Notes: a model not told the origin generated them from the sequence alone. DNA of 64,000 nucleotides from Promethearchaeota archaeon (GCA_019058365.1 JAHPZE010000006.1:1-64000), one strand, 5' to 3'. Numbered from the stretch's first letter, positions 7,038-32,235 are shown. Made by a program: numbers and translations.

Positions 7038-8306
7038 TTGATCTCAAGATTTATCAGAAGGGATACCGACATTTTACCCGATCCATTACGTAAAAATATT
7101 ACGGTTATTCATTATTATAATGAGATCATTCGATTTTGGAATAAAATAAATTTTATTATCAAGAAAACTCTTGGGGGCTCTAATTCTCTTGATAGTGTTA
7201 AATTACCCAAATATTTATATGCTACTTATAGAATGTTATGGGAACATGCTTCTGAGAAGAAAATCATTAATGAGTTAAAAGAGATTAATGAAGAATTTTT
7301 GAAAAAAATTAAGATATTTTCATGGAAAAAAGCTCTTATTAATAAAGTGGAAAAAGAAAAGCTTAGTATTTTAGAAGCAATCCCTAGTTTTATGATTGAA
7401 CATCTTCTTCCTGTTATGAGCATTAATTTTCTTAAAAGTAATATTCAATTTATGAATGGTTTACAACGTACAGTTGAAATTACTATACGTATTAACAATC
7501 TTTGTAGTAAAGAAAATTCTGAGAATTTATTCACAAAAATTAAAGAGAATCTTAAAAAGAATGGAATAAATTATCGCAAGGATCTTAACCTTCCAGATCT
7601 ATTTTGGATACCCCGCTCACAAAAGAGTAGAGTCATTAGAAGTTCTTATTACCAAAATGGAAATTTAATTTTGCAAGATAAAGCATCAGCAGCAGTTATC
7701 CAAGCATTAGCACCTAAAAAAGAAGATAAAGTATGTGATATGTGTGCTGCTCCCGGAATAAAAACAAGTTTTATTGCTCAATATATGAATAATAAAGGAC
7801 ATATTATAGCGGGTGAATTTCTTACTGAAAGAGTAAATATGATGGTGTTGTTACTTAAGCAATTAAACGTTTTAAATGTCCACATACTAAATACCGATAG
7901 CATTATTTTTCCCATCCGATTTCAGAATTATTTTGATTGCATTTTATTAGATGCTCCTTGTACGGGATCAGGAGCCCTCTTAGTCAGCCCAGAATTAAAA
8001 TGGCGGCAAAATCAAGGATTTCTACATCAAAATATTATTGTACAAAAGAAATTAATCGAGAATGCGATAAAAATGTTAAGACCTGGCGGGATTTTAGTAT
8101 ATTCTACGTGTAGCCTTTATGCAGAGGAGGGAGAAAACCAAATTTTAGATTTTATAGATAATTTAGAACCTTTAGATTTACCTAATTGGCTTTCTCCTAG
8201 TTATAAAGTCGAGGATAATACAATACCTGGTACAGGGAGATTATTTCCATCACTACATCATACTCAAGGTTTTTTTATAGGAAAGTTCAAAAAAAAGGAA
8301 ATATGA
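7038..8306 (+). CDS. RsmB/NOP2/NSUN-family RNA m5C methyltransferase
   Basis: LQDKASA, DMCAAPGIKT, ILLDAPCTGSG, LVYSTCS, EEGE, QGFFI motifs. Confidence 0.95.
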   Translation: MISRFIRRDTDILPDPLRKNITVIHYYNEIIRFWNKINFIIKKTLGGSNSLDSVKLPKYLYATYRMLWEHASEKKIINELKEINEEFLKKIKIFSWKKALINKVEKEKLSILEAIPSFMIEHLLPVMSINFLKSNIQFMNGLQRTVEITIRINNLCSKENSENLFTKIKENLKKNGINYRKDLNLPDLFWIPRSQKSRVIRSSYYQNGNLILQDKASAAVIQALAPKKEDKVCDMCAAPGIKTSFIAQYMNNKGHIIAGEFLTERVNMMVLLLKQLNVLNVHILNTDSIIFPIRFQNYFDCILLDAPCTGSGALLVSPELKWRQNQGFLHQNIIVQKKLIENAIKMLRPGGILVYSTCSLYAEEGENQILDFIDNLEPLDLPNWLSPSYKVEDNTIPGTGRLFPSLHHTQGFFIGKFKKKEI

Positions 8307-15249: not shown

Positions 15250-16239
15250 GTGCTAGATACCAGTATTCTTGAGAGTAATAAAGACATCAAAGATAAAATT
15301 TCTAACAAATTAAATGGGATTAAAGAACAATCCCGTAATTTTATAAAGGATATTATTACTCTGATTAATAAAGAGGTGGGGGTTAATAAAGTCTTATCAA
15401 TTTTACTATTTGGGAGTCAAAGAACTAAAAATTCTAAAGATGTAACAATAGTATCTGATTGTGATTTACTGATTATTTTTAAAGATAGAGTATCAAATCA
15501 TCATATTAAAGAAATCGAGAAATACTTTATTGCGTTAGAAATTAAACACAAATTTAAAGAATATGACGACCACTTTTCTAAAAAAGTATTAGGAGTAATT
15601 AACCAAACTACTGGTATATTTAGGAGTCATTTTTTAACTAAAAAGAAATATTGGGAAAGTGTTATCTTTCATAAAATATTTCGCGTAAATAAAGTATTCT
15701 CATCAATCTTTGCTCCTAGAAAAATAGTACTTGGAAATATTTTAATAAATAGTTCAATCCTCTACGGAGATGATTTAAGAGAAGATATTAGACCAACTAT
15801 TCAAATTACTTTCCAAGAAATGTTAAGAAGTACTGTTATGAATCTAATGATCTCCCTATTTGCGATAGCAATATCATTCCTCAGAAATTTAAACCCTACG
15901 AAATATCAATTAGAAGCAATAAAATGGGCTTTAAAAGCATCAAATTATTATTGTTATCGAGATTCAGAAGATCTAAAGACTATTACTAAGCGATTTATTT
16001 TATTTGAGAAAAACAGATCACAAAAAAAAGCAAGAAGATTTTTTTCTGACTTTCTACAATTAAGAATTTCTCCTCATAATGATATGGGTTTTATGATTCG
16101 ATGTCCAATTAGACTCATAAAAATTCACATTAAAGCAATACTATTTAAGAAATTGATTAAAAGAAAGGAAAAATTAAGGCTTCCTTCTAAATATATTGAA
16201 CCAATTATTCCTGATCATTCTTTTCCTTTAAGATTTTAA
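15250..16239 (+). CDS. Pol-beta-superfamily nucleotidyltransferase domain protein
   Basis: ILLFGS...SDCDLLII motif plus a helical, basic C-terminal region. Confidence 0.75.
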   Translation: MLDTSILESNKDIKDKISNKLNGIKEQSRNFIKDIITLINKEVGVNKVLSILLFGSQRTKNSKDVTIVSDCDLLIIFKDRVSNHHIKEIEKYFIALEIKHKFKEYDDHFSKKVLGVINQTTGIFRSHFLTKKKYWESVIFHKIFRVNKVFSSIFAPRKIVLGNILINSSILYGDDLREDIRPTIQITFQEMLRSTVMNLMISLFAIAISFLRNLNPTKYQLEAIKWALKASNYYCYRDSEDLKTITKRFILFEKNRSQKKARRFFSDFLQLRISPHNDMGFMIRCPIRLIKIHIKAILFKKLIKRKEKLRLPSKYIEPIIPDHSFPLRF

Positions 16240-17812: not shown

Positions 17813-20086
17813 TTAAAAAACCTTAAGGTCTACTTCTTTCCATTCTTCATATTGATGAAAAATATGATCAATAGTTTCTAAAGTCTCAATAAGTGCATTT
17901 TTGGTTTCATCCTCCTGTTTAAAGGTATCAACTATTACATCACCAAGATCTACTTTATACTCTTGAGCAAGATCCGAAATTTTTCTTAAATCCTCTCTAT
18001 CGATACCTTTTTCTTCCAATTGATCGATAGCATGTTCAATTTCCTCTTTTAACTTAACTGTGGCATTTAAAGATTTGGAGCATTTATCAAATAATTCCTT
18101 TTCTCTATCAAGTACTAGCGTTTCTTCTTCAGAAAAATCGTGTTTTTCATTTACAACTTCAAGTCTTTCATTTAATAAATATTTCACTCGTTCATAAATC
18201 TTAATTGCCTCTGATATCTTACTTAATCCTTTTATTAAGTCTAATCTCTGGTTTAATCGTGCTTCAACTACTTTTAAGTATGCGTCTTCATAATATGTTT
18301 GGATCTTTCCAAATGTACTTTTTTCCCAATCGTTTATTCTATAATATATTTGCCTTAATTCATTATTTAGGTTAGTTATTTTTTTAGGATTTAAATCTTG
18401 ATCTGTTAACTCTCTAAAAATCTTATCAGTGTCTTGTTTTAACATTAACACTCTTAAATACATAATATGTGCTTTTTTTTCTATGTTTGTTATACTCCTT
18501 GAAGTACCTTCACGCTCACAGAATTTATATATTATTAAAGCATCATCAAGTAATTCATTAAATCTATCTTGATCTTTTCGAATATAATATTTAGAGTCTT
18601 GAACTTTTTGAATTGCCCTATCCATTTGAATTTCTAATTCGAATATATAATCAATTAAACTCACTTGTTTTCTTTCTGACAAAATTCTTGATTTATACGC
18701 CATATCTTCTTCTACTTTCCTGCTTGCTAATAACCAATAAATAGATGCAGGGATCCAAAAAAATATACTAATAAATATCATATTAAATATACTTCCAAAA
18801 ATGGAAATAAGTGTAAATGATACTAATAGTGTCACTCCTTTACTCAATTGTTCTGACAGTTTAAAAAAAGAAGCTGCTGTACCTTTATGTTCTGGCATAT
18901 TAACGTCTATCATTATTGCGCTCTTATTTGCTACAGGACCCGCGCCTAACATTGATGCTATTAAAGCAAAAATAAAGAAAATAATAAATGTGGGATATAC
19001 TACAAATATTTCACCAATAGTACGTAAGATATATAAAAAAAGTTCGTTAGTTGGAATTGGATCAGGGTAAAGGATATCTAATTTACCCGGATTAATAGGT
19101 TGTAATGAAAGTAGCATTATAATAGCAAAAGGTATTGAAAAAATCAGACATAAAGTCGCTAACCTGGCTCGATTTTTTTTATTTCGACGAAATAATGTAT
19201 CTCCTAAACGAGCAAATACACTATTTCCAAGTATATATCCGATACCAACCATACCCGCAAAAATTGTTGCTGTTTGTAATTTTATTTCATCAGGAATTTG
19301 ATAAAAAAATTGAAGCATTAACATCGAAGTCGTAAAATAGACTAATACAGTACCAGGGATAACCGTGAAGAAACCTTGAATTATTAAATAACGATTTGTT
19401 TTTTTCTGAATAATTGTTTTTAAATCCTCTTTCGAAATTCGATAACTATATTCTAAATCCAATTCAATTAGCTCTAACAATTCATCTTCACTAGCTCCGC
19501 GTTGAGGCATTTTAACAAAAAAGAGAATTATCACTACTACAACACTTATTATAGAAAGTAAAATGAAAGGAAATCGCCATGTCAATATTGGTCCAAGAAA
19601 GGAAGATAAACCTTGCCCAGCCCCATTAGATATAGAACTTAAGATTGCTAAAGTTCCAAACCAACCCGATCTCTCTTCTGGAGGTATCGCATCTGAAATT
19701 ATAGAATACCCCACTGGTAATACACATCCTAATCCGGCACCACATGCTACTCTAGAAATTACTAACATAAGATAAGTACTTGAAAAAGCAGTTAACATCA
19801 TCCCAATAGTCCATGAAAAAGCTCCAGACATAATAACTATAGTTCTGTTTATTCGATCAGTATAATACCCCCAAAGTAAAGCAAAAAAAGCACTGATCAA
19901 TACAAAAAAAGCATCAGGGACGGCAATTAATGCTTGTGGAATTTTAAACTCTTTTTGGATCGCAACATAACTAGGAATAAGCATATTAGCGCATGCTGTT
20001 GATATGAAAAGCAACACCATGACTAAGATGATAGGTGCCAGATCTTTGAATTTCACCTTAGTTAGTTGAAATTTTCCAATAAGCAA
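17813..20086 (-). CDS. MFS transporter (spinster-like) fused to an approximately 300-aa soluble helical C-terminal domain
   Basis: motif A WGYYTDRINR, ISRVACGAG, SIISDAIPPEERS, about 12 TMs to aa ~455, then a charged helical tail. Confidence 0.85.
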   Translation of the reverse strand: MLIGKFQLTKVKFKDLAPIILVMVLLFISTACANMLIPSYVAIQKEFKIPQALIAVPDAFFVLISAFFALLWGYYTDRINRTIVIMSGAFSWTIGMMLTAFSSTYLMLVISRVACGAGLGCVLPVGYSIISDAIPPEERSGWFGTLAILSSISNGAGQGLSSFLGPILTWRFPFILLSIISVVVVIILFFVKMPQRGASEDELLELIELDLEYSYRISKEDLKTIIQKKTNRYLIIQGFFTVIPGTVLVYFTTSMLMLQFFYQIPDEIKLQTATIFAGMVGIGYILGNSVFARLGDTLFRRNKKNRARLATLCLIFSIPFAIIMLLSLQPINPGKLDILYPDPIPTNELFLYILRTIGEIFVVYPTFIIFFIFALIASMLGAGPVANKSAIMIDVNMPEHKGTAASFFKLSEQLSKGVTLLVSFTLISIFGSIFNMIFISIFFWIPASIYWLLASRKVEEDMAYKSRILSERKQVSLIDYIFELEIQMDRAIQKVQDSKYYIRKDQDRFNELLDDALIIYKFCEREGTSRSITNIEKKAHIMYLRVLMLKQDTDKIFRELTDQDLNPKKITNLNNELRQIYYRINDWEKSTFGKIQTYYEDAYLKVVEARLNQRLDLIKGLSKISEAIKIYERVKYLLNERLEVVNEKHDFSEEETLVLDREKELFDKCSKSLNATVKLKEEIEHAIDQLEEKGIDREDLRKISDLAQEYKVDLGDVIVDTFKQEDETKNALIETLETIDHIFHQYEEWKEVDLKVF

Positions 20087-21582: not shown

Positions 21583-22854
21583 CTAGGTTCTCAACAATAA
21601 ATTTGGATCCTTCTTCTTAATTGTCATTATATCTCCAAATTTTATTTCTTTAAAATTTTTGAGATGACAAACCCAGCAAAATTTGTTATTTAGTGAATTT
21701 ATATTGCCACAATTAGAACAGACTTTAAAGTCTTCTGAATGTGTGAAAATATGTTTTACTTTGTAATACCCTTTTAGTTCCCATTCCAAATTTCTTAAAC
21801 TTTTTAAATAATTTATAAAGAAATCAAATAATTTAAGGTTATCTAAGGTTCTTCCTATTTTCTTAAAATTTTTCCCACATAAAATACTTGATAATTGAAT
21901 TATCGCGTTAATTGTAGGTGTGGACAAATTTAAAAACTTAGCTAATGATGCAACTGGTACAAGCCCCGTTGGTACATCTTCTGTAAAGTATCTTGTAATC
22001 AATTTATCAGGAGCATTTATATTTTTGTATGCTTCGACTTTTTGAATAGATTCATAGATCTTATTTGTATTAACACCATAGGATTTTTTTACCCATTTAT
22101 GATATTTTAATTGTTTTAATCCTAACTTCAAAAAAATTTCATTTAGCTCTAATTCAATATTTTCAAGTACTTCACATACTCGTGGAGTAGCTCCCTCTTT
22201 ATAAAACTTGAATTCTTTACCAAAATCCATCATACCCGCATTTAATAAAGATATTGCTGGATGTAATATCATTCCTATATTGTTTAAGGTCACTTCTAGG
22301 TAATTATCAACAGGAATAATTTGAGGAAATATTTCTTTTAATATATCATATACTAAATATGTAAATTCATCAGGAAAAGTTGAAAAAGTAACTTTTTCTT
22401 TAATTGTAATTATATTAACTTCGTTTCCAGCTAATTCTCTTGAAGTAAAAAGGAGCGTTTGAGTCTCACCAATTCTAATAAGATTTTTCCCTTTTATATT
22501 ATCAATAATTCCTTTAACTTCTACTGAGCCAAAGGTTCTTCCTGGATTTAAAATTATGATTTGATTAGAGGATAATATAGGAGCCAATTCTTTTGCAATA
22601 CTTTTATGAGCAGAAGCAGGGATAACGATAAATATTACATCTGCGTCCTTTATTGCCAATTTTAAGTTTTGTGTAATTAATTCAAGAGGAAAAAATCCTT
22701 CTAATACACCCTTTGCTTTAATTCCTCCTTTTCGTATAATGGAACTTATTCTTGAATAAGAACGGTTATATAAGGAGACAGGAAATCCTTTTGAAGAAAT
22801 ATAGGCTGCAAATGCTCTACCACCTGATCCTGCCCCAATAACGCAAAATCTCAC
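21583..22854 (-). CDS. NAD/NADP octopine/nopaline (opine) dehydrogenase family protein with C-terminal zinc ribbon
   Basis: VIGAGSGG Rossmann motif, NPGRTFG, ETQTL, NIGMILHP, FYKEG, RYFTEDVPTGL; tail CSNC..CWVC. Confidence 0.9.
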   Translation of the reverse strand: MRFCVIGAGSGGRAFAAYISSKGFPVSLYNRSYSRISSIIRKGGIKAKGVLEGFFPLELITQNLKLAIKDADVIFIVIPASAHKSIAKELAPILSSNQIIILNPGRTFGSVEVKGIIDNIKGKNLIRIGETQTLLFTSRELAGNEVNIITIKEKVTFSTFPDEFTYLVYDILKEIFPQIIPVDNYLEVTLNNIGMILHPAISLLNAGMMDFGKEFKFYKEGATPRVCEVLENIELELNEIFLKLGLKQLKYHKWVKKSYGVNTNKIYESIQKVEAYKNINAPDKLITRYFTEDVPTGLVPVASLAKFLNLSTPTINAIIQLSSILCGKNFKKIGRTLDNLKLFDFFINYLKSLRNLEWELKGYYKVKHIFTHSEDFKVCSNCGNINSLNNKFCWVCHLKNFKEIKFGDIMTIKKKDPNLLLRT

Positions 22855-24596
22855 TCATTCATCACCTTACTATAAAAAAATTCTTTTTGAAATTTATCTT
22901 CTGATATTGATATATTAGGCTGCTTTTCGATGATATTTTTAATCCTTTCTCTTTCATCAATTATCTTTTGGTCTTTAATGTCCCAAGAATAACATGCACC
23001 ATTAATAATTTTCGTTTTAATTTGACCTAATGCAAATTGATTATTTTTTAACTGAGGAGCATCAAAAATTCCATAATCTACGAGCCTATTTAGAACTTTA
23101 TGGTTTATCCATGGATTTTTTTGTTCCTCATTTGTTTTCACTAAGCAAGGAATCAAATTTATAATCCATTGGGCTTCTCTTATTAAATCTTCTTTTCTTT
23201 TCCTAATTTTCTCATCAATAAAATTTAATTTACTGGTAAACGAAGTATTAATTACTTGATCCACAATATTGCAACTTTCAATAATATCCTCTGGACGAGC
23301 AGCATGACTCGCTTCAGAATAACTAACAACATGAACAATATCAGGTTTTATTGCTAATTGTATTAATGTAGCTACAGCTAACTGTCCTTTAGCTTTATTT
23401 AAATCAATTGGAAAACTTGCCAATCCTGTTCTAACTTGTTTTATTAATGAAAATGAAGGGTCTACTAAGGTAAGAAGAAGTTCATCTTTAGCTAAAATTT
23501 TAGCGAAATCCATGTCAAGCGAGCTTGAAGGTGGAGTATTAAACATATATTGTGCTATAAAATATTTAACACCTAATTTCTTTGCTATAATTCCTGATAA
23601 ATACATATCCGCAACAGCGATTGCATCTGGGGCATCTCTTAGACTCCAATGGTGAGGATCGTTTATCTCTACGGGCACATCATTTTCAGCATACCATTTA
23701 ATTGTATTTAAGTGTTGTTTTATAGATTCTTTTAAGGTTAGAGGTCCTCTCCCATCCATCTGGTTAAACCAGAAAATAGGAATAGCTGCCCAAGCATTTT
23801 TTATTGTGCGTTGATACATTTCAGCAAGCTTTATGAAGTCTCTTGTTCCGGCATATATTCTTAGTAAAGGACGATTTCCCGTTAATCTTGCTTTATGTAA
23901 TTTAAGAAAATCCTCCTCGGTTCTTAAAGGAACACCCCCAGCTCCAGATAACTCTTGAATTTGCTCATCGGGATGAAAATAATTAGCCTGCGTGTTTTGA
24001 TCAGGGGCAATGGAAATCACATCTAAGACTTCAGCTTTCGCAATTATTTGTATTCCTCTTACTGTTTCTTCAAAATTAGATAATCCAAAATGCGCTCTAA
24101 TTATTGGATATGGTTTTTTCCATTCTATTCTTGATATTAAATCCATTGGAATTTCTAAATTCTTTTTAAGAATATCTTTCTCATCTTTTAAAATTGAGAT
24201 TACTCTATGTTTTGATTCGCCTCCTATGAAGTATGCATCAAACTTATTAAAATTTTTCACAATATTGATAACTTCTGAAGTTCCTGCGAAGTATAACTTC
24301 TTAGGTTTGTTTTCTATTTTTTCAAAATTTTTAAAAAAATTCTTAAGTAATGGTTTTACGGTTAATGGGGTAAGACGATAGCTTAATCCAACAATTTCAG
24401 GATTGTACTTTTGAATTTCACTTATCAATTTCCAAATTTGGGTTGCTGGACCTAAAAATTTACATTCATAACCAAGTTGAGTAGCAATGCTCATGAAATT
24501 ATAAGCCCCCGCAACATGTACACATTGACCTATGCATGCAATTAATATCTTTTTGTTTTTTCTACTTTTTGAATGTTGTATTATATTTTTTTTCAA
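22851..24596 (-). CDS. cobalamin-binding domain + large TIM-barrel-like domain protein (uncharacterised B12 enzyme)
   Basis: GQCVHVAG (DxHxxG-like), LGPA, VGLSYRL, FAGT B12-binding pattern; IIRAHFG, DVISIAPDQ, GAGGVP, HHWSLRDA; GGGGTGA RBS before TTG. Confidence 0.85.
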   Translation of the reverse strand: MKKNIIQHSKSRKNKKILIACIGQCVHVAGAYNFMSIATQLGYECKFLGPATQIWKLISEIQKYNPEIVGLSYRLTPLTVKPLLKNFFKNFEKIENKPKKLYFAGTSEVINIVKNFNKFDAYFIGGESKHRVISILKDEKDILKKNLEIPMDLISRIEWKKPYPIIRAHFGLSNFEETVRGIQIIAKAEVLDVISIAPDQNTQANYFHPDEQIQELSGAGGVPLRTEEDFLKLHKARLTGNRPLLRIYAGTRDFIKLAEMYQRTIKNAWAAIPIFWFNQMDGRGPLTLKESIKQHLNTIKWYAENDVPVEINDPHHWSLRDAPDAIAVADMYLSGIIAKKLGVKYFIAQYMFNTPPSSSLDMDFAKILAKDELLLTLVDPSFSLIKQVRTGLASFPIDLNKAKGQLAVATLIQLAIKPDIVHVVSYSEASHAARPEDIIESCNIVDQVINTSFTSKLNFIDEKIRKRKEDLIREAQWIINLIPCLVKTNEEQKNPWINHKVLNRLVDYGIFDAPQLKNNQFALGQIKTKIINGACYSWDIKDQKIIDERERIKNIIEKQPNISISEDKFQKEFFYSKVMNE

Positions 24597-25177
24597 AATA
24601 TCACCCCCTATTTCTTTAGGAGTATAAAAGAGAAGAATTTCAAAACTTATTCATAAAATCGATTTCTGCTAACTACACAATTCGATCTTTTTAAGTTAAG
24701 AATAAACAATTTTTTCACGTTAAGTTGATTTTTCACAAATTTTAAAGCTCAACCTATTTAACTAGTAAAAACTTAGATATTTAAGCATTTCGATTATTTA
24801 AATATGAATTAACCAATTGATTATTTAAATAAATATTCGTTTCAATTAAATCCGTTTGTATATAGATGAAATAATTTAAAAATTAAGATAATTTCAATTA
24901 TGATACTTTTTTTTAGGTTTTACATACAAGTTTGGGATTCATCGGATTTTTTCTTAGGATCTTATTTTTAAGGAAATTTAAAAAAATTTTGACTCATGTA
25001 TTTAATATGAAAATTTAAAGAATATTCATCGTTTCCCGTATTTCTGTATATCTTCATATATTATCCTAGGATCTAACGGAGAGAATATGAACAAAATCTA
25101 AATTTTAGATTCTTCAATAATCATTTAACCTATAGGCAATTTGTCTAATTATTAATAAACCTTAAGGTCAAAAATTA

Positions 25178-25960
25178 ATGAAACCACATCATAAAAATGC
25201 TATAGATAAATTAGTTGAGAAAATTAAAGAAGATGAGAGGTTTTTAGCACTTATAATTGCCGGATCAATCGCAAAAGGTATGGAAAGGGAAGATTCTGAT
25301 ATTGATGTAATTCTTGTTGCAACTGATGAAGAATTTGAAAAAAGAAAAAGGAGAAATAGATATTTATATTATGAAACTCAGTTTTGTGATTATCCTGGAG
25401 GGTATATTGATGGTAAAATTGTTAATTTTCAATTCTTAGAAACTATAGCAGAAAGGGGTAGTGAACCTGCTAGAGATGCATTTAATTCTGCATGGATTGC
25501 TTATTCTAAAATTCCTCAACTTGAAGAGTTATTGAAAAAAATACCCATTTTTCAGAAAGAGGAAAAATTAGAAAAAATTAAGAAATTTTATGCTCAATTT
25601 GAAATTGCTAATTGGTTCGTTAAAGAAGCTGAAAGGAGAAATGATAATTATTTATTAACTCGAGCAGCAACGGATCTTATTTTATTTGGAGGGAGGTTAA
25701 TCCTTGAACATAATGAGATATTGTATCCATTTCACAAATTATTTATGGAAATCTTAGATCAAGCTCCTGACAAACCAGAAAATTTAATGAAACTCATAGA
25801 AAAGCTATTGAACAATAAAAATTCTCAAAATGCACAAGCTCTTTTTAATGCTATTAAAGATTTTAGAAAATGGGAAATTCGAGAATTGTCACCAATTCGT
25901 TTTATGATTGATACTGAATGGGCTTGGTTTGAAGGAAAATCATATGTAGGAGATCTCTAA
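25178..25960 (+). CDS. nucleotidyltransferase domain protein
   Basis: IIAGSIAKG..REDSDIDVILV, YIDGK. Confidence 0.85.
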   Translation: MKPHHKNAIDKLVEKIKEDERFLALIIAGSIAKGMEREDSDIDVILVATDEEFEKRKRRNRYLYYETQFCDYPGGYIDGKIVNFQFLETIAERGSEPARDAFNSAWIAYSKIPQLEELLKKIPIFQKEEKLEKIKKFYAQFEIANWFVKEAERRNDNYLLTRAATDLILFGGRLILEHNEILYPFHKLFMEILDQAPDKPENLMKLIEKLLNNKNSQNAQALFNAIKDFRKWEIRELSPIRFMIDTEWAWFEGKSYVGDL

Positions 25961-26184: not shown

Positions 26185-27504
26185 ATGTTAAAATCAAATA
26201 ATTCGAAGGAAACTGATTCTAAGATAACTCCTGACTTTATTCCAATGATTAGAATAGTTTTTTGGAATAGTTTAGGGTTCTTCTTTTTTACATTTTTAAT
26301 TCCATATGTTACAGCTCAACTCTTTGAGGCTTCAGGTACCGAAATGGGTCTAACATTCGCAAGTCAAACACTTGGAGGCTTAATAAGCACACCGATTGTA
26401 GGATATCTCACTGATAAAGTATCTAAGAAACTTTTAGTATTAATAGGGAGTTTTGGTAGAGCTGCATGTTATATCCTTATGTATATTGGAATAATTCTTT
26501 CTTCTTTGATAATATTTGCAATAGGGCTCTTTATACTCGGGTTTTTTGTTGGATTTTTTTGGAGTCCTTTAAATGCATTGATTTCAGAGAAATCCCATAA
26601 GACATTTCGTTCCTCCGCATTTGGGAAACAAGGTGGAATGCTTGGTAAAGGAAATTTAGTAGGATCAATTGTTAGTTTTCTTATTTTTGGAGTAGCAAAC
26701 TTTTATGTACCGAGTAATAAATTTATAGTTTATTTTCCCTTAATTTTATTTACAATCTCTAATATCTACGCAGGAATTGTATTTCATAAGAATGTAGACG
26801 AAAATTTAACATATGACATGCATTTCAATCAGGTAAACTTATCAACAGAGAAAATAATTGATAAAATTTCAATTGATGTAAAAAAAGAAACTAATAATAC
26901 TTCTCTAAAATTATCTCTTGGTTTTCTTATAGGTTTTATCATTTTAATAACTGCTTTTATGACAAGTAGTGCAAATCAAACAATAGCTCCACCTTTTTTT
27001 CAAGTTTATTTAATAAATGAGTTAAAAGTAACTGACGCAACATTGGTAATGATTATTTATTTCCCTAGTCAAATAATATCATTGTTACTCGCTCCACGGA
27101 TGGGTAAAATAGCTGATAGAATTAAACCTCAAATAGCTATAATCTTTATAAGTGGATTCGGAGCTCTTGTGACATGGCTTATTGTAAATAGTTCATCTGG
27201 ATTAATGTTTGGGATTATTTTAACATTTGATGTTACATTATCTTGGGCAAGCTCGTTAGTATTACAAAATGTACTAAGTCGCATATCTAAAGGACATCGA
27301 GGTAAAATATTTGGTATGACTCAATGGATGAGTTTCCTTGGAGCTATCTTAGGTCCTATTGTAGGAGGATTAGCATGGGATCACTTAGGACCACAAGCAC
27401 CATTTATAATATCCATATTTATAGAATTGTCTGTGATACCACTATACATTACAGCTATAAAGATATTGAAACCATATATGGCAGAAAAAATAGAAGAATC
27501 TTAA
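26185..27504 (+). CDS. MFS transporter
   Basis: 12 TMs, GYLTDKVSKK and GKIADRIKP motif A copies, GPIVGG. Confidence 0.93.
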   Translation: MLKSNNSKETDSKITPDFIPMIRIVFWNSLGFFFFTFLIPYVTAQLFEASGTEMGLTFASQTLGGLISTPIVGYLTDKVSKKLLVLIGSFGRAACYILMYIGIILSSLIIFAIGLFILGFFVGFFWSPLNALISEKSHKTFRSSAFGKQGGMLGKGNLVGSIVSFLIFGVANFYVPSNKFIVYFPLILFTISNIYAGIVFHKNVDENLTYDMHFNQVNLSTEKIIDKISIDVKKETNNTSLKLSLGFLIGFIILITAFMTSSANQTIAPPFFQVYLINELKVTDATLVMIIYFPSQIISLLLAPRMGKIADRIKPQIAIIFISGFGALVTWLIVNSSSGLMFGIILTFDVTLSWASSLVLQNVLSRISKGHRGKIFGMTQWMSFLGAILGPIVGGLAWDHLGPQAPFIISIFIELSVIPLYITAIKILKPYMAEKIEES

Positions 27505-28796: not shown

Positions 28797-29234
28797 TTAT
28801 ATTAAAATCTCTTCTACTTGTTTCAGACTTTTTACTTTCTTTTTCAGTGTTGGAGGTAGTTTTTTTATGATTATCTCATCAGCAGTACAGAACAACTTTT
28901 CTAAACCTATACTTAATCCAAGATAGCAAGCATCGTAGATTGATAAATCGTAGTCTATAGCAGCATTAATCATATGTTTACGTATTTCATTTTTTATTGT
29001 GATTACTTTAAATCCATAATTCTCTAAACTTTCTCCCGCATCCTCAAGCTCGCAAGGTTTGAATAGTTGACTGTATTTTAACGCATTCAAGACTTCAAAA
29101 TATAATAATGTTGGAACGTACAATTCAATCTTTCCACCTATAAAGCTATCTCGTAGAAGTAGTGCTTTATCTGAATCAATTTCTTCTATAAACCATTTAA
29201 CTACTACACTTGCATCAATAACAATTTCTTTCAT
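28797..29234 (-). CDS. vapC: VapC PIN-domain toxin
   Basis: IVIDASVVVKWF, EVLNAL, SIYDACY, TAD. Confidence 0.92.
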   Translation of the reverse strand: MKEIVIDASVVVKWFIEEIDSDKALLLRDSFIGGKIELYVPTLLYFEVLNALKYSQLFKPCELEDAGESLENYGFKVITIKNEIRKHMINAAIDYDLSIYDACYLGLSIGLEKLFCTADEIIIKKLPPTLKKKVKSLKQVEEILI

Positions 29235-29827: not shown

Positions 29828-31705
29828 TTATAATAAACCCTCTTTTTTAAGCTTCAATTCAACATCTTTTAAATCCAGCTTTTGTAATATTTCAGAAGTG
29901 GGTACACCTTCATCATTCCACCCCACTGCTGTGTAATATTCGGATTTTAATTTTTCGAATGAATTTTTATCTATTGATTCCCCTTTAAACGGTCCCGATG
30001 GGAGAGGTTCCCAAAATCTAGACGGTAGAGTATCATCGTGCTTTGATCTCCATTCAGCATCTGGTCCTCCAAGCAGTGACACAGTTCTCTGTAATTGTAA
30101 AATTCTTAAACCTTTTTCGCTAAACCAGCTTTCTTTTGGTAATTCCCAACCTGTAACTGCTTGATAGAAACTTGCAATTTGATCAAAATCTAGTGTAAAG
30201 GTGGTAAAGAAACAATATACTCCAGAATCGCTAAGAATTGAGTATAATTCACTTCCATCTCCATCAATAGGAAGAACAGCTGATGATGTATGGTCTCCTG
30301 CTTGAACTGACACACTATATCCAATAGAGGTTTGTGTAACCATATCTTTACCGCTTTTAAGGCCGTGAGCTCCGATTGCCATACCTTTAAGATGAATTGC
30401 GTATTTGAGAACTTCTGTTCCTTTCATCTCTTCAAGCTTTAAAGCTGCCCGATATATACCTTCTGCTAATATATCACCAATACCTTCTCTAAAAGCAATT
30501 TTTCTGGCTAATTCTGCAAACGCATCAACATTTCCCCATTCGAGATTAATTCCTCCTAAATCTTCTTTTGAAAGGATATCTCTTTGGAATAATTCTCCGG
30601 TAAAACCCAAAATTGCACCGCCTTGAATACCACAAAATCCTAATTCTTCTATTACATACGATAGATAAATGTTTTGTTCTGGTGAAAAAATGCCCAAGTT
30701 AGTCCCCAGGAATGCCTCAAGCTCGTAATCGGGATTATCACAGATTGCCCCAGCGTATTTTCCATCTCTTAGCACCGCCAACTTTAGACACGTAACGGGA
30801 CAGCCGTAATCTCCCCAGTACTTTTTTACCCAAAGTTTGTCGAATTCTTCGCCTCTATAACTTTTCTCATTATGCCATTCTTCCTGCCAATTTCTGACTG
30901 GCTCTGAACTTGAATCAGCACCAAACGTATATCCTCCCGAGCCTGTACCCCAACGTCTAAAAAATTCTATCCTAAAACAATTATTTGAAAATTCCTGTGA
31001 TAACTCGAGCATTTTATCCTGATCAACCACATCTGGTAAGGGACCAAAACCTTTTACAACCACAGCTTTCAAGTTTTTAGATCCCATTACGCCACCGTAT
31101 CCTCCGTAACCAGCAGCGTGTGCATATTTTGCTTCTACGGCTGCTACCCTGGATTTATTTTCTCCAGCAGGACCTATGTAAAGAACCGAAGGTTCCTTAA
31201 ACTCCCCATAATTAGGATGAATCTTTTTGATATCGTTAATCGAGTCCTTTACGAGATAACGCATAGATTCTCTGCTAGTTTTTCCCCATATGTGTGAAGC
31301 ATCTTTAATTTCTATGTTATCGTCACAAATAAATACGTAACTCGGTTTTTCAGCCTTTCCCGTAAAAATTATTCCGTCATAACCTGCACATTTCAATTCC
31401 ACACCAAACTCTCCCGCGACAGTTGAACCTATAATTCCATTACCTTGGGGGGATTTTCCAGTTACGCAAATTCTAGCACCAAGAAAATATCCTGTAAAAG
31501 GGCCAGTAAGCATGAGTAAAACATTTTCAGGACCTAAAGGATCAATTATCTCCCACTTATCTCCAAGCCTATCCCACAATATCTTTACGCCTAAACCCCT
31601 CCCTCCAATGTAATCCTGAAGAACTTTGTCTGGAATTGTAATTTTTCCAATTTTCTTATGTGTTAAATCTATTTCCAGAAATTTTCCGGCATAACCCCTC
31701 ACCAT
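29828..31705 (-). CDS. tungsten aldehyde:ferredoxin oxidoreductase family, WOR5-like large subunit
   Basis: YIGGRGLG, LWDRLGDKWEIIDPLGPEN, GKSP, AGYDG, HAAGYGGYGGVMGSKNLKAV, DYGCPVTC, PDYE, SGVYC. Confidence 0.93.
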   Translation of the reverse strand: MVRGYAGKFLEIDLTHKKIGKITIPDKVLQDYIGGRGLGVKILWDRLGDKWEIIDPLGPENVLLMLTGPFTGYFLGARICVTGKSPQGNGIIGSTVAGEFGVELKCAGYDGIIFTGKAEKPSYVFICDDNIEIKDASHIWGKTSRESMRYLVKDSINDIKKIHPNYGEFKEPSVLYIGPAGENKSRVAAVEAKYAHAAGYGGYGGVMGSKNLKAVVVKGFGPLPDVVDQDKMLELSQEFSNNCFRIEFFRRWGTGSGGYTFGADSSSEPVRNWQEEWHNEKSYRGEEFDKLWVKKYWGDYGCPVTCLKLAVLRDGKYAGAICDNPDYELEAFLGTNLGIFSPEQNIYLSYVIEELGFCGIQGGAILGFTGELFQRDILSKEDLGGINLEWGNVDAFAELARKIAFREGIGDILAEGIYRAALKLEEMKGTEVLKYAIHLKGMAIGAHGLKSGKDMVTQTSIGYSVSVQAGDHTSSAVLPIDGDGSELYSILSDSGVYCFFTTFTLDFDQIASFYQAVTGWELPKESWFSEKGLRILQLQRTVSLLGGPDAEWRSKHDDTLPSRFWEPLPSGPFKGESIDKNSFEKLKSEYYTAVGWNDEGVPTSEILQKLDLKDVELKLKKEGLL

Positions 31706-32235
31706 TCGTACACCTCTTCAGTTGCTTTTTCGCCCAATAGTTTTCTTGCAATTTCATATGCAAGTTCCTTAGGAGTTTTTGTGGATGCTTTTTCCGTTTC
31801 CGCGTCTTGACCCTCTAAGAGAATCAAAGTATCCCACTTACCTTCTTGACAAGCCGCTGTACATTTCGGTTTTCCACCACATAAATCGCAAATAACTATA
31901 TAATCGTCTTGAGGATGGAGATGGGGTACACTCCCAGGACAGGCGTTAATACACGTTCCACATGCGGTACATTTCGATTTATCAGTGATTACGGCTCCTG
32001 TACGATCGTCTATTGATAGAGCTTCCTCGGGACACACCTCAATGCACGGATAATCTTTGCATTGAAAACAGAGATGAGGTATTTCAACGCCTGGAACAAA
32101 CATGAAAACTCTAACTCTTGAAGCTTCCGGCCAAATTTTCCCTTCGTGATAGAGAGAACACGCAATCTCACATCTTCTGCATCCGCTGCATTTTTCATAA
32201 ATTCTTTTTATCCACAGATTATTTATATCTTCCAT
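31699..32235 (-). CDS. 4x[4Fe-4S] electron-transfer subunit (WOR5 small-subunit/DmsB-like)
   Basis: CSGCRRCEIAC, CFQC..YPCIEVCP, CTACGTCINACP, CDLCGGKPKCTAAC; overlaps the AOR start. Confidence 0.93.
   Translation of the reverse strand: MEDINNLWIKRIYEKCSGCRRCEIACSLYHEGKIWPEASRVRVFMFVPGVEIPHLCFQCKDYPCIEVCPEEALSIDDRTGAVITDKSKCTACGTCINACPGSVPHLHPQDDYIVICDLCGGKPKCTAACQEGKWDTLILLEGQDAETEKASTKTPKELAYEIARKLLGEKATEEVYEW

Follow-up and report, generated by a model that had tools for sequence, protein, structure and literature searches.

A putative cobalamin-binding mutase-like protein and an opine dehydrogenase form a conserved gene pair in Asgard archaea and anaerobic bacteria: a candidate module for a rearranged amino acid

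A 64,000-nucleotide stretch of an Asgard archaeon, Promethearchaeota archaeon (GCA_019058365.1, JAHPZE010000006.1:1-64000; hereafter the window), encodes on its minus strand two overlapping genes whose products are a single-chain, putatively cobalamin-binding protein with a glutamate mutase-like barrel, here called MUT, and an opine dehydrogenase, here called ODH. Comparison of their sequences and predicted folds suggests that MUT is probably an adenosylcobalamin (AdoCbl)-dependent radical mutase that works with an NADPH-dependent opine synthase, the two jointly making a rearranged, acidic N-carboxyalkyl amino acid. The source organism is of the Promethearchaeota type, with a 100% complete genome of 4.74 Mb and 29-31% GC. 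It encodes exactly one MUT and one ODH, and the ODH is its sole gene with the PF02317 domain. The features of the pair are as follows.

22851-24596, minus strand: MUT gene (P0001), 581 amino acids, TTG start; single-chain protein with a B12-binding domain and a GlmE-like barrel
21583-22854, minus strand: ODH gene (P0002), 423 amino acids, GTG start; opine dehydrogenase
22851-22854, minus strand: GTGA common to both genes, where the stop codon of MUT (TGA) and the start codon of ODH (GTG) overlap, as the sequence itself shows
24177-24563, minus strand: N-terminal cobalamin-binding (Rossmann-like) domain of MUT, about residues 12-140, assigned by PF02310 (1.2e-5) and profile matches
24507-24524, minus strand: ligand loop C25-V-H27-V-A-G30 of MUT, a DxHxxG variant with Cys for Asp
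22935-24155, minus strand: TIM-barrel catalytic domain of MUT, about residues 148-554, GlmE-like by structure matches and hhalign
21664-21720, minus strand: zinc-ribbon-like CxxC...CxxC tail of ODH (C379, C382, C393, C396), with a weak Pfam DZR match at residues 376-396
24623-24629, minus strand: TTTTATA upstream of MUT, about 30 nt before the TTG, a putative signal found by reading the sequence
24601-24608, minus strand: GGGGGTGA, 5 nt before the TTG of MUT, a putative signal found in the same way

Both open reading frames, the arrangement of a B12 domain followed by a large domain, and the overlapping stop and start codons had been recognized in an earlier sequence-only reading of the window, and all of these stand. 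The MUT gene ends ...AAG GTG ATG AAT GAG TGA, and ODH begins inside this segment with GTG-AGA-TTT-TGC (V R F C), giving an overlap of 4 nt. By their coordinates, about 20 related Asgard loci have the same coincidence of end and start. The transcription unit probably consists of MUT and ODH alone, since ODH is followed by a T-run and then by a TATA-like element that appears to belong to Ogt, the neighboring gene. Riboswitch control was considered and rejected: there is no Rfam element in the window between 20000 and 26200, and Rfam gave no match near the pair in a set of 11 loci from Chloroflexota and other groups, nor in a second set of 9. The Rfam matches in related loci are only unrelated SAM riboswitches and PYLIS elements.

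The association of the two genes is widely conserved. Species-representative genomes were scanned, which yielded 127 relatives, and the 80 loci that were kept span Promethearchaeota, Hermod-, Hod-, Odin- and Heimdallarchaeota and the Anaerolineae of the Chloroflexota. Homologs of MUT in Asgard metagenome-assembled genomes have the same length and 65-92% identity. The pairing of MUT with ODH is not a matter of chance, because tblastn finds ODH adjoining MUT in 75 of the 80 loci and the other five (L004, L032, L042, L050, L065) end about 300 bp or less from the MUT gene, so that the partner is present in 75 of the 75 loci with room for it. A PF02317 gene also adjoins the clade-B relatives, which are about 30% identical, and MUT in four further bacterial lineages. 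Conservation of the pair in anaerobic archaea and bacteria, which the sequence-only reading had proposed to check, is thus strong in the related loci and in bacterial contigs alike. MUT precedes ODH in Loki-type loci and in most of those from Chloroflexota, and ODH comes first in the Heimdall type. MUT is widespread but accessory: it is found in 121 of the 301 sampled Asgard genomes with a completeness of 80% or more (about 40%), and in 11 of 33 genomes of the source's own genus. A FastTree phylogeny, which is a quick tree with long branches to be read cautiously, places Loki-type MUT proteins in one well-supported clade, with the Heimdall-type proteins branching elsewhere, together with two other representatives, and those of Chloroflexota among the bacterial representatives.

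The catalytic domain of MUT has the fold of the AdoCbl isomerases. An AlphaFold2 model built on an alignment (pLDDT 90.6, pTM 0.84) has as its closest structure the E subunit of glutamate mutase, GlmE (1cb7_B; VIA-align Z 31.0, root-mean-square deviation 3.1 A over 375 residues; Foldseek E 5.8e-17), followed by KamD (Z 29.4), OraE (Z 26.8) and MCM (Z about 21). The top 28 structural matches of the barrel are all AdoCbl isomerases, and pterin-binding barrels (DHPS) reach only Z of about 15. The AdoCbl-mutase architecture proposed from the sequence alone is therefore borne out by the structural comparison. At the level of sequence the relationship is distant: PF06368 (Met_asp_mut_E) scores 24.1 bits on residues 246-480 against a cutoff of 26.6 (22.9 bits in the genome search), and hhalign of MUT against canonical GlmE gives a probability of 76% and an E value of 2e-5. 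A sequence-profile search of the PDB with the barrel alone returned no GlmE match at E <= 10, and residues were therefore mapped by hhalign to a GlmE alignment, which was seeded with E. coli O157 ECs_0762 and converted to Clostridium cochlearium numbering through alignment to 6h9e_B. A Pfam scan of MUT found no radical-SAM, homocysteine (Hcy) or pterin domain, and PF02574, PF00809 and PF02607 (the B12-cap domain) had no match at E <= 0.01. The absence of radical-SAM and methionine-synthase domains noted in the sequence-only reading is upheld, and Pfam and the structure matches agree that the large domain belongs to no known methyltransferase.

The mapped residues point to a remodeled substrate pocket. 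GlmE R100 (DAYTR) corresponds to MUT Q203 (DQNTQ), with DQxxQ present in 68 of 68 family sequences, and GlmE R149-H150 (RHGTPD) corresponds to MUT Y248-A (IYAGTRD), with RxYxGTxD present in 66 of 68. No acidic residue of MUT aligns by hhalign with GlmE E171, and GlmE R66 is perhaps equivalent to MUT R167, a match made by eye only. MUT E428, in a nearly invariant YSEA segment, aligns with the glutamate of the GlmE segment PHE330A, in an hhalign comparison of only 76% probability. Glu330 is the residue of GlmE that holds the adenosyl ribose, and this adenosyl-binding glutamate seems to be kept in MUT. Free glutamate is an unlikely substrate for MUT, because the arginine claw that binds glutamate in GlmE has been lost while the adenosyl-binding glutamate seems to have been retained. 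In an alignment of 31 diverse MUT homologs (profile A1), the near-invariant basic and acidic residues of the barrel are R156, R167, H169, D281, R283, E310, R320, D324, K366, R389, H422 and R467. The arginines among them and K366, with an extra arginine of ODH described below, suggest that the substrate may be acidic.

Glutamate mutase of C. cochlearium (GlmS/GlmE, also MutS/MutE; EC 5.4.99.1; 1cb7, 1ccw, 6h9e) is the nearest characterized relative of MUT. The two share a B12-binding Rossmann domain and a TIM barrel, colinear motifs from beta-3 onward that include GT-x-D and a (P/Y)-x-E-A segment whose glutamate would be the one at the adenosyl ribose, and the reactivase family MutL, which is fused to some MUT relatives. 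They differ in that glutamate mutase has separate S and E subunits whereas MUT is one chain with the B12 domain N-terminal, in DxHxxG against CxHxxG, and in an overall identity of about 15%, with PF06368 below its cutoff. The claw residues are not kept (R100 to Q203, R149 to Y248), nor is E171. In addition, MUT lacks the methylaspartase partner of glutamate mutase and has opine dehydrogenase as its fixed partner.

The N-terminal domain of MUT resembles a base-off/His-on cobalamin-binding domain. PF02310 matches residues 16-76 with 25.6 bits (1.2e-5) against a gathering cutoff of 32.1, and profile A1 matches solved B12 domains, namely 4jgi (2.4e-8), the MCM small subunit 2yxb (5e-6), MttC (6e-5) and GlmS (1e-3). 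Within the signature DxHxxG...SxL...GG, His27, Gly30, the segment S72-Y-R-L75 and G105 are kept; H27, G30, S72, R74, L75 and G105 are nearly invariant in A1, and the aspartate is replaced by cysteine. The ligand loop reads I-G-Q-C25-V-H27-V-A-G30, and C[VA]H[VI][AV]G is found in all 76 complete N-termini of the Asgard and Chloroflexota loci. The variant loop before the histidine had been noticed in the sequence-only reading, which was correct; its register was not, since Cys-Val stands for Asp-x and the glutamine lies one residue further upstream. More distant family members, among them P0171, P0185 and P0189, form a sister clade with the canonical D-x-H-T-x-G, so the cysteine is a clade-specific replacement of the aspartate and would not in itself count against B12 binding. 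The histidine is absent from two family representatives, P0155 and P0173. Selenocysteine at position 25 was examined and discarded: tblastn places the in-frame TGA ahead of the real start codon (query position 13), outside the motif, and the single in-frame TGA reported in genomes of family f11 (L094-L098), such as G075, G045, G162 and G174, is a read-through artifact. A search for a pyridoxal phosphate (PLP)-binding lysine had also been suggested. There is no lysine in the invariant or near-invariant A1 columns of residues 1-140, and a PLP link of the KamE/OraE type is unsupported, because the Rossmann domain has no conserved lysine.

The identification of the second protein as an opine dehydrogenase is secure. 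PF02317 scores 137.9 bits (3.4e-40) against a cutoff of 30, an N-terminal NAD(P)-binding Rossmann domain is present with the glycine motif GAGSGG at residues 7-12, and residues 3-343 match CENDH, the N-(1-D-carboxyethyl)-L-norvaline dehydrogenase of Arthrobacter sp. 1C (1bg6), with an E value of 2e-70. None of the 20 aligned partners departs from H198 or R288, which correspond to the HP and RY segments of 1bg6; like CENDH, ODH keeps the catalytic His198 and the R-Y-x-x-E-D segment, R288-Y-x-x-E292-D293 being invariant among the partners. ODH differs from CENDH in an obligate B12-enzyme partner and in three features of its own sequence. After beta-2, all 73 partner ODHs have L[YF]NR[ST] where the NADH-dependent CENDH has WDID with its acidic residue, and this substitution suggests that the partners use NADPH, and hence work in the reductive, synthetic direction. 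Arg106, invariant among the partners, is alanine in CENDH and could bind an extra carboxylate. Finally, ODH has a C-terminal tail of about 80 residues, whose four cysteines are conserved in eight Asgard partners of 423 or 424 residues; the majority of partners are about 367 residues long and lack it. A complex prediction of MUT with residues 1-350 of ODH scored 0.00, which carries no weight for or against contact.

The class of MUT is most likely that of an AdoCbl-dependent isomerase. Three family members (P0147, P0151 and P0152, representatives at 50% identity) are fused to MutL/GlmL (PF13941), the reactivase family of glutamate mutase; the MutL-fused form that was examined has no adjacent ODH. 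In the source genome AdoCbl should be available, because it encodes a CobA-type adenosyltransferase and two mutases of the MCM family. Many homologs of MUT are named methionine synthase by NCBI, which is probably a mis-transfer at the level of a domain.

In the mechanism that we propose, the two genes would be a module of two enzymes, bicistronic and coupled in translation. MUT, as a single-chain base-off/His-on cobalamin enzyme with a barrel distantly homologous to that of glutamate mutase E, would use AdoCbl to start a radical 1,2-rearrangement, most likely on a substrate other than free glutamate, and the CENDH-like ODH, with its NADPH-type motif, would reductively condense an amino acid with a 2-oxo acid. 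The steps could run in either order, with ODH making an opine that MUT isomerizes or MUT supplying an unusual amine or oxo acid for ODH. The product of the module would be an N-carboxyalkyl amino acid, rearranged into a branched or beta-linked form and probably polyacidic. A carboxylate-amine ligase may then, in many lineages, couple this product to surface glycans in bacteria and to another acceptor in Asgard archaea, where it might instead serve as a free solute. The folds, conserved residues, adjacency and contexts of the pair are observed, and it is the use of AdoCbl, the biosynthetic direction, the class of substrate and the order of steps that we infer. More tentatively, and as a possibility that we would not call probable, MUT may be the first of a new class of AdoCbl isomerases that act on a secondary amine, the opine made by its obligate NADPH-dependent partner, with cysteine in place of the aspartate of the ligand pair in the present clade; the resulting rearranged polycarboxylic amino acid, one not yet described, would be a building block, solute or metal ligand of Asgard archaea and many anaerobic bacteria.

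A number of observations weigh against this proposal. Both Pfam domains of MUT fall below their gathering thresholds, and an NCBIfam scan of the protein gave no match at all. Corrinoid proteins of methyltransferase systems are among the best sequence matches of the B12 domain, and the aspartate of the His-Asp pair is cysteine throughout the MUT clade. The complete source genome encodes neither MutL (PF13941) nor a PduO-type adenosyltransferase. The equivalence of E428 with GlmE E330 would depend on a profile alignment of low probability, and the substrate residues of GlmE are not kept, so the chemistry of GlmE is not transferable to MUT. There is no ligase beside the pair in the window, where the sole nearby amino acid gene encodes an Asp/Glu racemase, and the major facilitator superfamily (MFS) transporters near the pair could bring in a compound for catabolism just as well as export one.

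The last point bears on a catabolic module, in which MUT would move a group so that ODH could oxidize the C-N bond of an imported opine-like, secondary-amine or amino compound. The models for such a module are ornithine 4,5-aminomutase (OraSE) with 2,4-diaminopentanoate dehydrogenase and lysine 5,6-aminomutase (KamDE) with 3,5-diaminohexanoate dehydrogenase, both of amino acid fermentation. A mutase followed by an amine dehydrogenase is the established biochemical logic of lysine and ornithine fermentation, which lends this alternative some weight. The barrel of MUT is nearly as close to these two aminomutases (1xrs and 8t0v for KamDE, 3kow for OraSE) as to GlmE, and they have in common with the pair that a B12 mutase is followed by an NAD(P) dehydrogenase for a C-N bond, which in their case belongs to a family other than the opine dehydrogenases. 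MFS genes flank the pair in the window (17813-20086 and 26185-27504), and one (cluster c13) stands next to it in 11 related loci; the carriers are anaerobic fermenters (Asgard archaea and Anaerolineae), and a trimethylamine methyltransferase system is found near the pair in locus L002 and in Heimdall-type loci. We nevertheless regard a catabolic role as unlikely. Where NADH enzymes have an acidic residue, 73 of 73 partners have the NADPH-type NR[ST], the Rossmann domain of MUT has no conserved lysine such as forms the PLP aldimine in KamDE and OraSE, and genes for a thiolase, lyase or CoA-transferase are not conserved downstream. Moreover, the bacterial pairs are situated inside loci for glycan and envelope biosynthesis, with glycosyltransferases, Wzx-type flippases and ATP-grasp ligases.

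Two further explanations concern the cofactor of MUT itself. If the name methionine synthase were taken at face value, MUT would be a methylcobalamin-dependent methyltransferase or a corrinoid protein. In keeping with this, the name is carried by many homologs in NCBI, the best matches of the B12 domain include the corrinoid proteins 4jgi, MttC (7xcn) and 1y80, MttB, a corrinoid protein and an Hcy methyltransferase adjoin the pair in some loci, and Zhang et al. 2009 (PMC2667541) related the domain to COG5012. MUT nonetheless has no Hcy, pterin or B12-cap domain in Pfam, its structural matches are to isomerases, with DHPS at Z of about 15 against 31 for GlmE, its family includes fusions with the MutL reactivase, and methyltransferase neighbors occur in a minority of loci only, all of which makes this explanation very improbable. 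It is hardly more probable that the B12-like domain no longer binds cobalamin and that MUT is a barrel enzyme with another cofactor or none, or a scaffold for ODH. The change from aspartate to cysteine, the Pfam scores below threshold, the representatives without the histidine and the missing MutL would all agree with such a degenerate domain. They are outweighed by the near-invariance of His27, Gly30, the SxxL segment and the glycine-rich loop across 31 diverse members, by the strict retention of the Cys-His loop in 76 of 76 sequences, which argues for a function, by the confident packing of both domains in the AlphaFold2 model, and by the canonical DxHxxG of the sister clade.

Beyond the pair, clustering of open reading frames across 81 loci revealed no universally conserved third gene, and several partial associations. 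In 7 Loki-type loci the pair is immediately preceded, on its own strand, by a Ddl-like ATP-grasp gene and an alanine racemase-like gene, and AsnB-like genes are near the pair in 7 loci. A trio encoding a GCS2-type carboxylate-amine ligase, a gamma-glutamyl cyclotransferase (GGACT) and a class-I GATase/peptidase C26 protein occurs in 7-10 loci of the Loki, Hermod and Hod types; it is located downstream of the pair on the opposite strand in L011, L016, L019-L021, L028, L029, L033 and L043, and may represent functionally linked gamma-glutamyl chemistry or mere synteny. One MUT representative (P0126) is fused to an ATP-grasp domain of the glutathione synthetase type, and another has a weak match to an M15 peptidase domain. 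In bacteria, the pairs are accompanied by an ATP-grasp gene within glycan and envelope loci that encode Wzx, GT2/GT4, DegT and LPG_synthase_TM proteins.

In the window, the same-strand neighbors Ogt, the Asp/Glu racemase and a gene combining MFS and coiled-coil regions are common only to the nearest relative, L001. The last of these (17813-20086, minus strand) encodes a 757-residue protein with MFS_1 at residues 23-327 and a highly charged C-terminal region of about 300 residues, probably a coiled coil, and is 78% identical to its L001 counterpart. Two genes for nucleotidyltransferases of the Pol-beta fold and one PIN-domain gene (25178-25960, plus strand; 15250-16239, plus strand; 28797-29234, minus strand), dispersed on either side of the pair, are probably toxin-antitoxin-like or defense genes. 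At 29828-32235 the minus strand encodes an aldehyde:ferredoxin oxidoreductase (AFOR_N/AFOR_C) together with a 4Fe-4S dicluster subunit; the surrounding block has 40% GC, compared with a background of about 29%, and may be an island gained by horizontal transfer. Among the related loci, the trimethylamine-type system is one gene away from the pair in the close Loki-type relative L002 and flanks it in Heimdall-type loci: MttB, a corrinoid protein with B12-binding and cap domains, and an Hcy S-methyltransferase protein are encoded at L002:10718-13400 and at L072:2854-4311 and 7523-8245. Heimdall-type loci also encode a protein with a MetH activation domain. The Rfam element PYLIS_3 lies inside mttB genes of related loci, which suggests that Asgard archaea have a pyrrolysine-containing MttB.

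The sequence-only reading regarded the pair as its best candidate for an undescribed system, and in this respect it was anticipated. Zhang, Rodionov, Gelfand & Gladyshev (2009, PMC2667541) predicted a B12-dependent family "always adjacent" to octopine/nopaline dehydrogenase. In the same year Mavromatis et al. (PMC2626281) described the corresponding operon of Halothermothrix, Hore_09740/Hore_09750, which is present in other thermophilic anaerobes as well. To judge by architecture, context and shared phyla, the MUT family is that of Zhang et al. The 2009 family likewise has a distant N-terminal B12 domain and a constant PF02317 neighbor, genes for D-Ala:D-Ala ligase and asparagine synthase nearby in several organisms, and carriers that are all anaerobes and include Chloroflexi. 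In contrast to the present set, the carriers listed in those papers are 11 bacteria from four phyla, with no archaea among them. We found no biochemical characterization of the pair in the literature, and nothing beyond these two papers that joins an opine dehydrogenase with cobalamin; the pair is a known, uncharacterized prediction. Relative to the available text of the 2009 papers, what is new is the Asgard membership, the structural placement beside GlmE and the aminomutases, the lost glutamate claw, the Cys-for-Asp loop, the MutL fusions and the NADPH-type partner.

The result from the window is thus mostly confirmatory, and adds an archaeal member, the assignment of the barrel to the GlmE/aminomutase group and a remodeled pocket. 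The family has been an orphan prediction since 2009. Roughly 40% of the Asgard genomes that were sampled encode it, as do Anaerolineae, and in bacteria it is met in glycan loci. To our knowledge, few reactions of AdoCbl isomerases have been described. Once identified, the reaction of the MUT family would represent new B12 radical chemistry and a new metabolite. Its identification would also correct a widespread mislabeling as methionine synthase, and would give one reason why anaerobes of sediments need cobamides.

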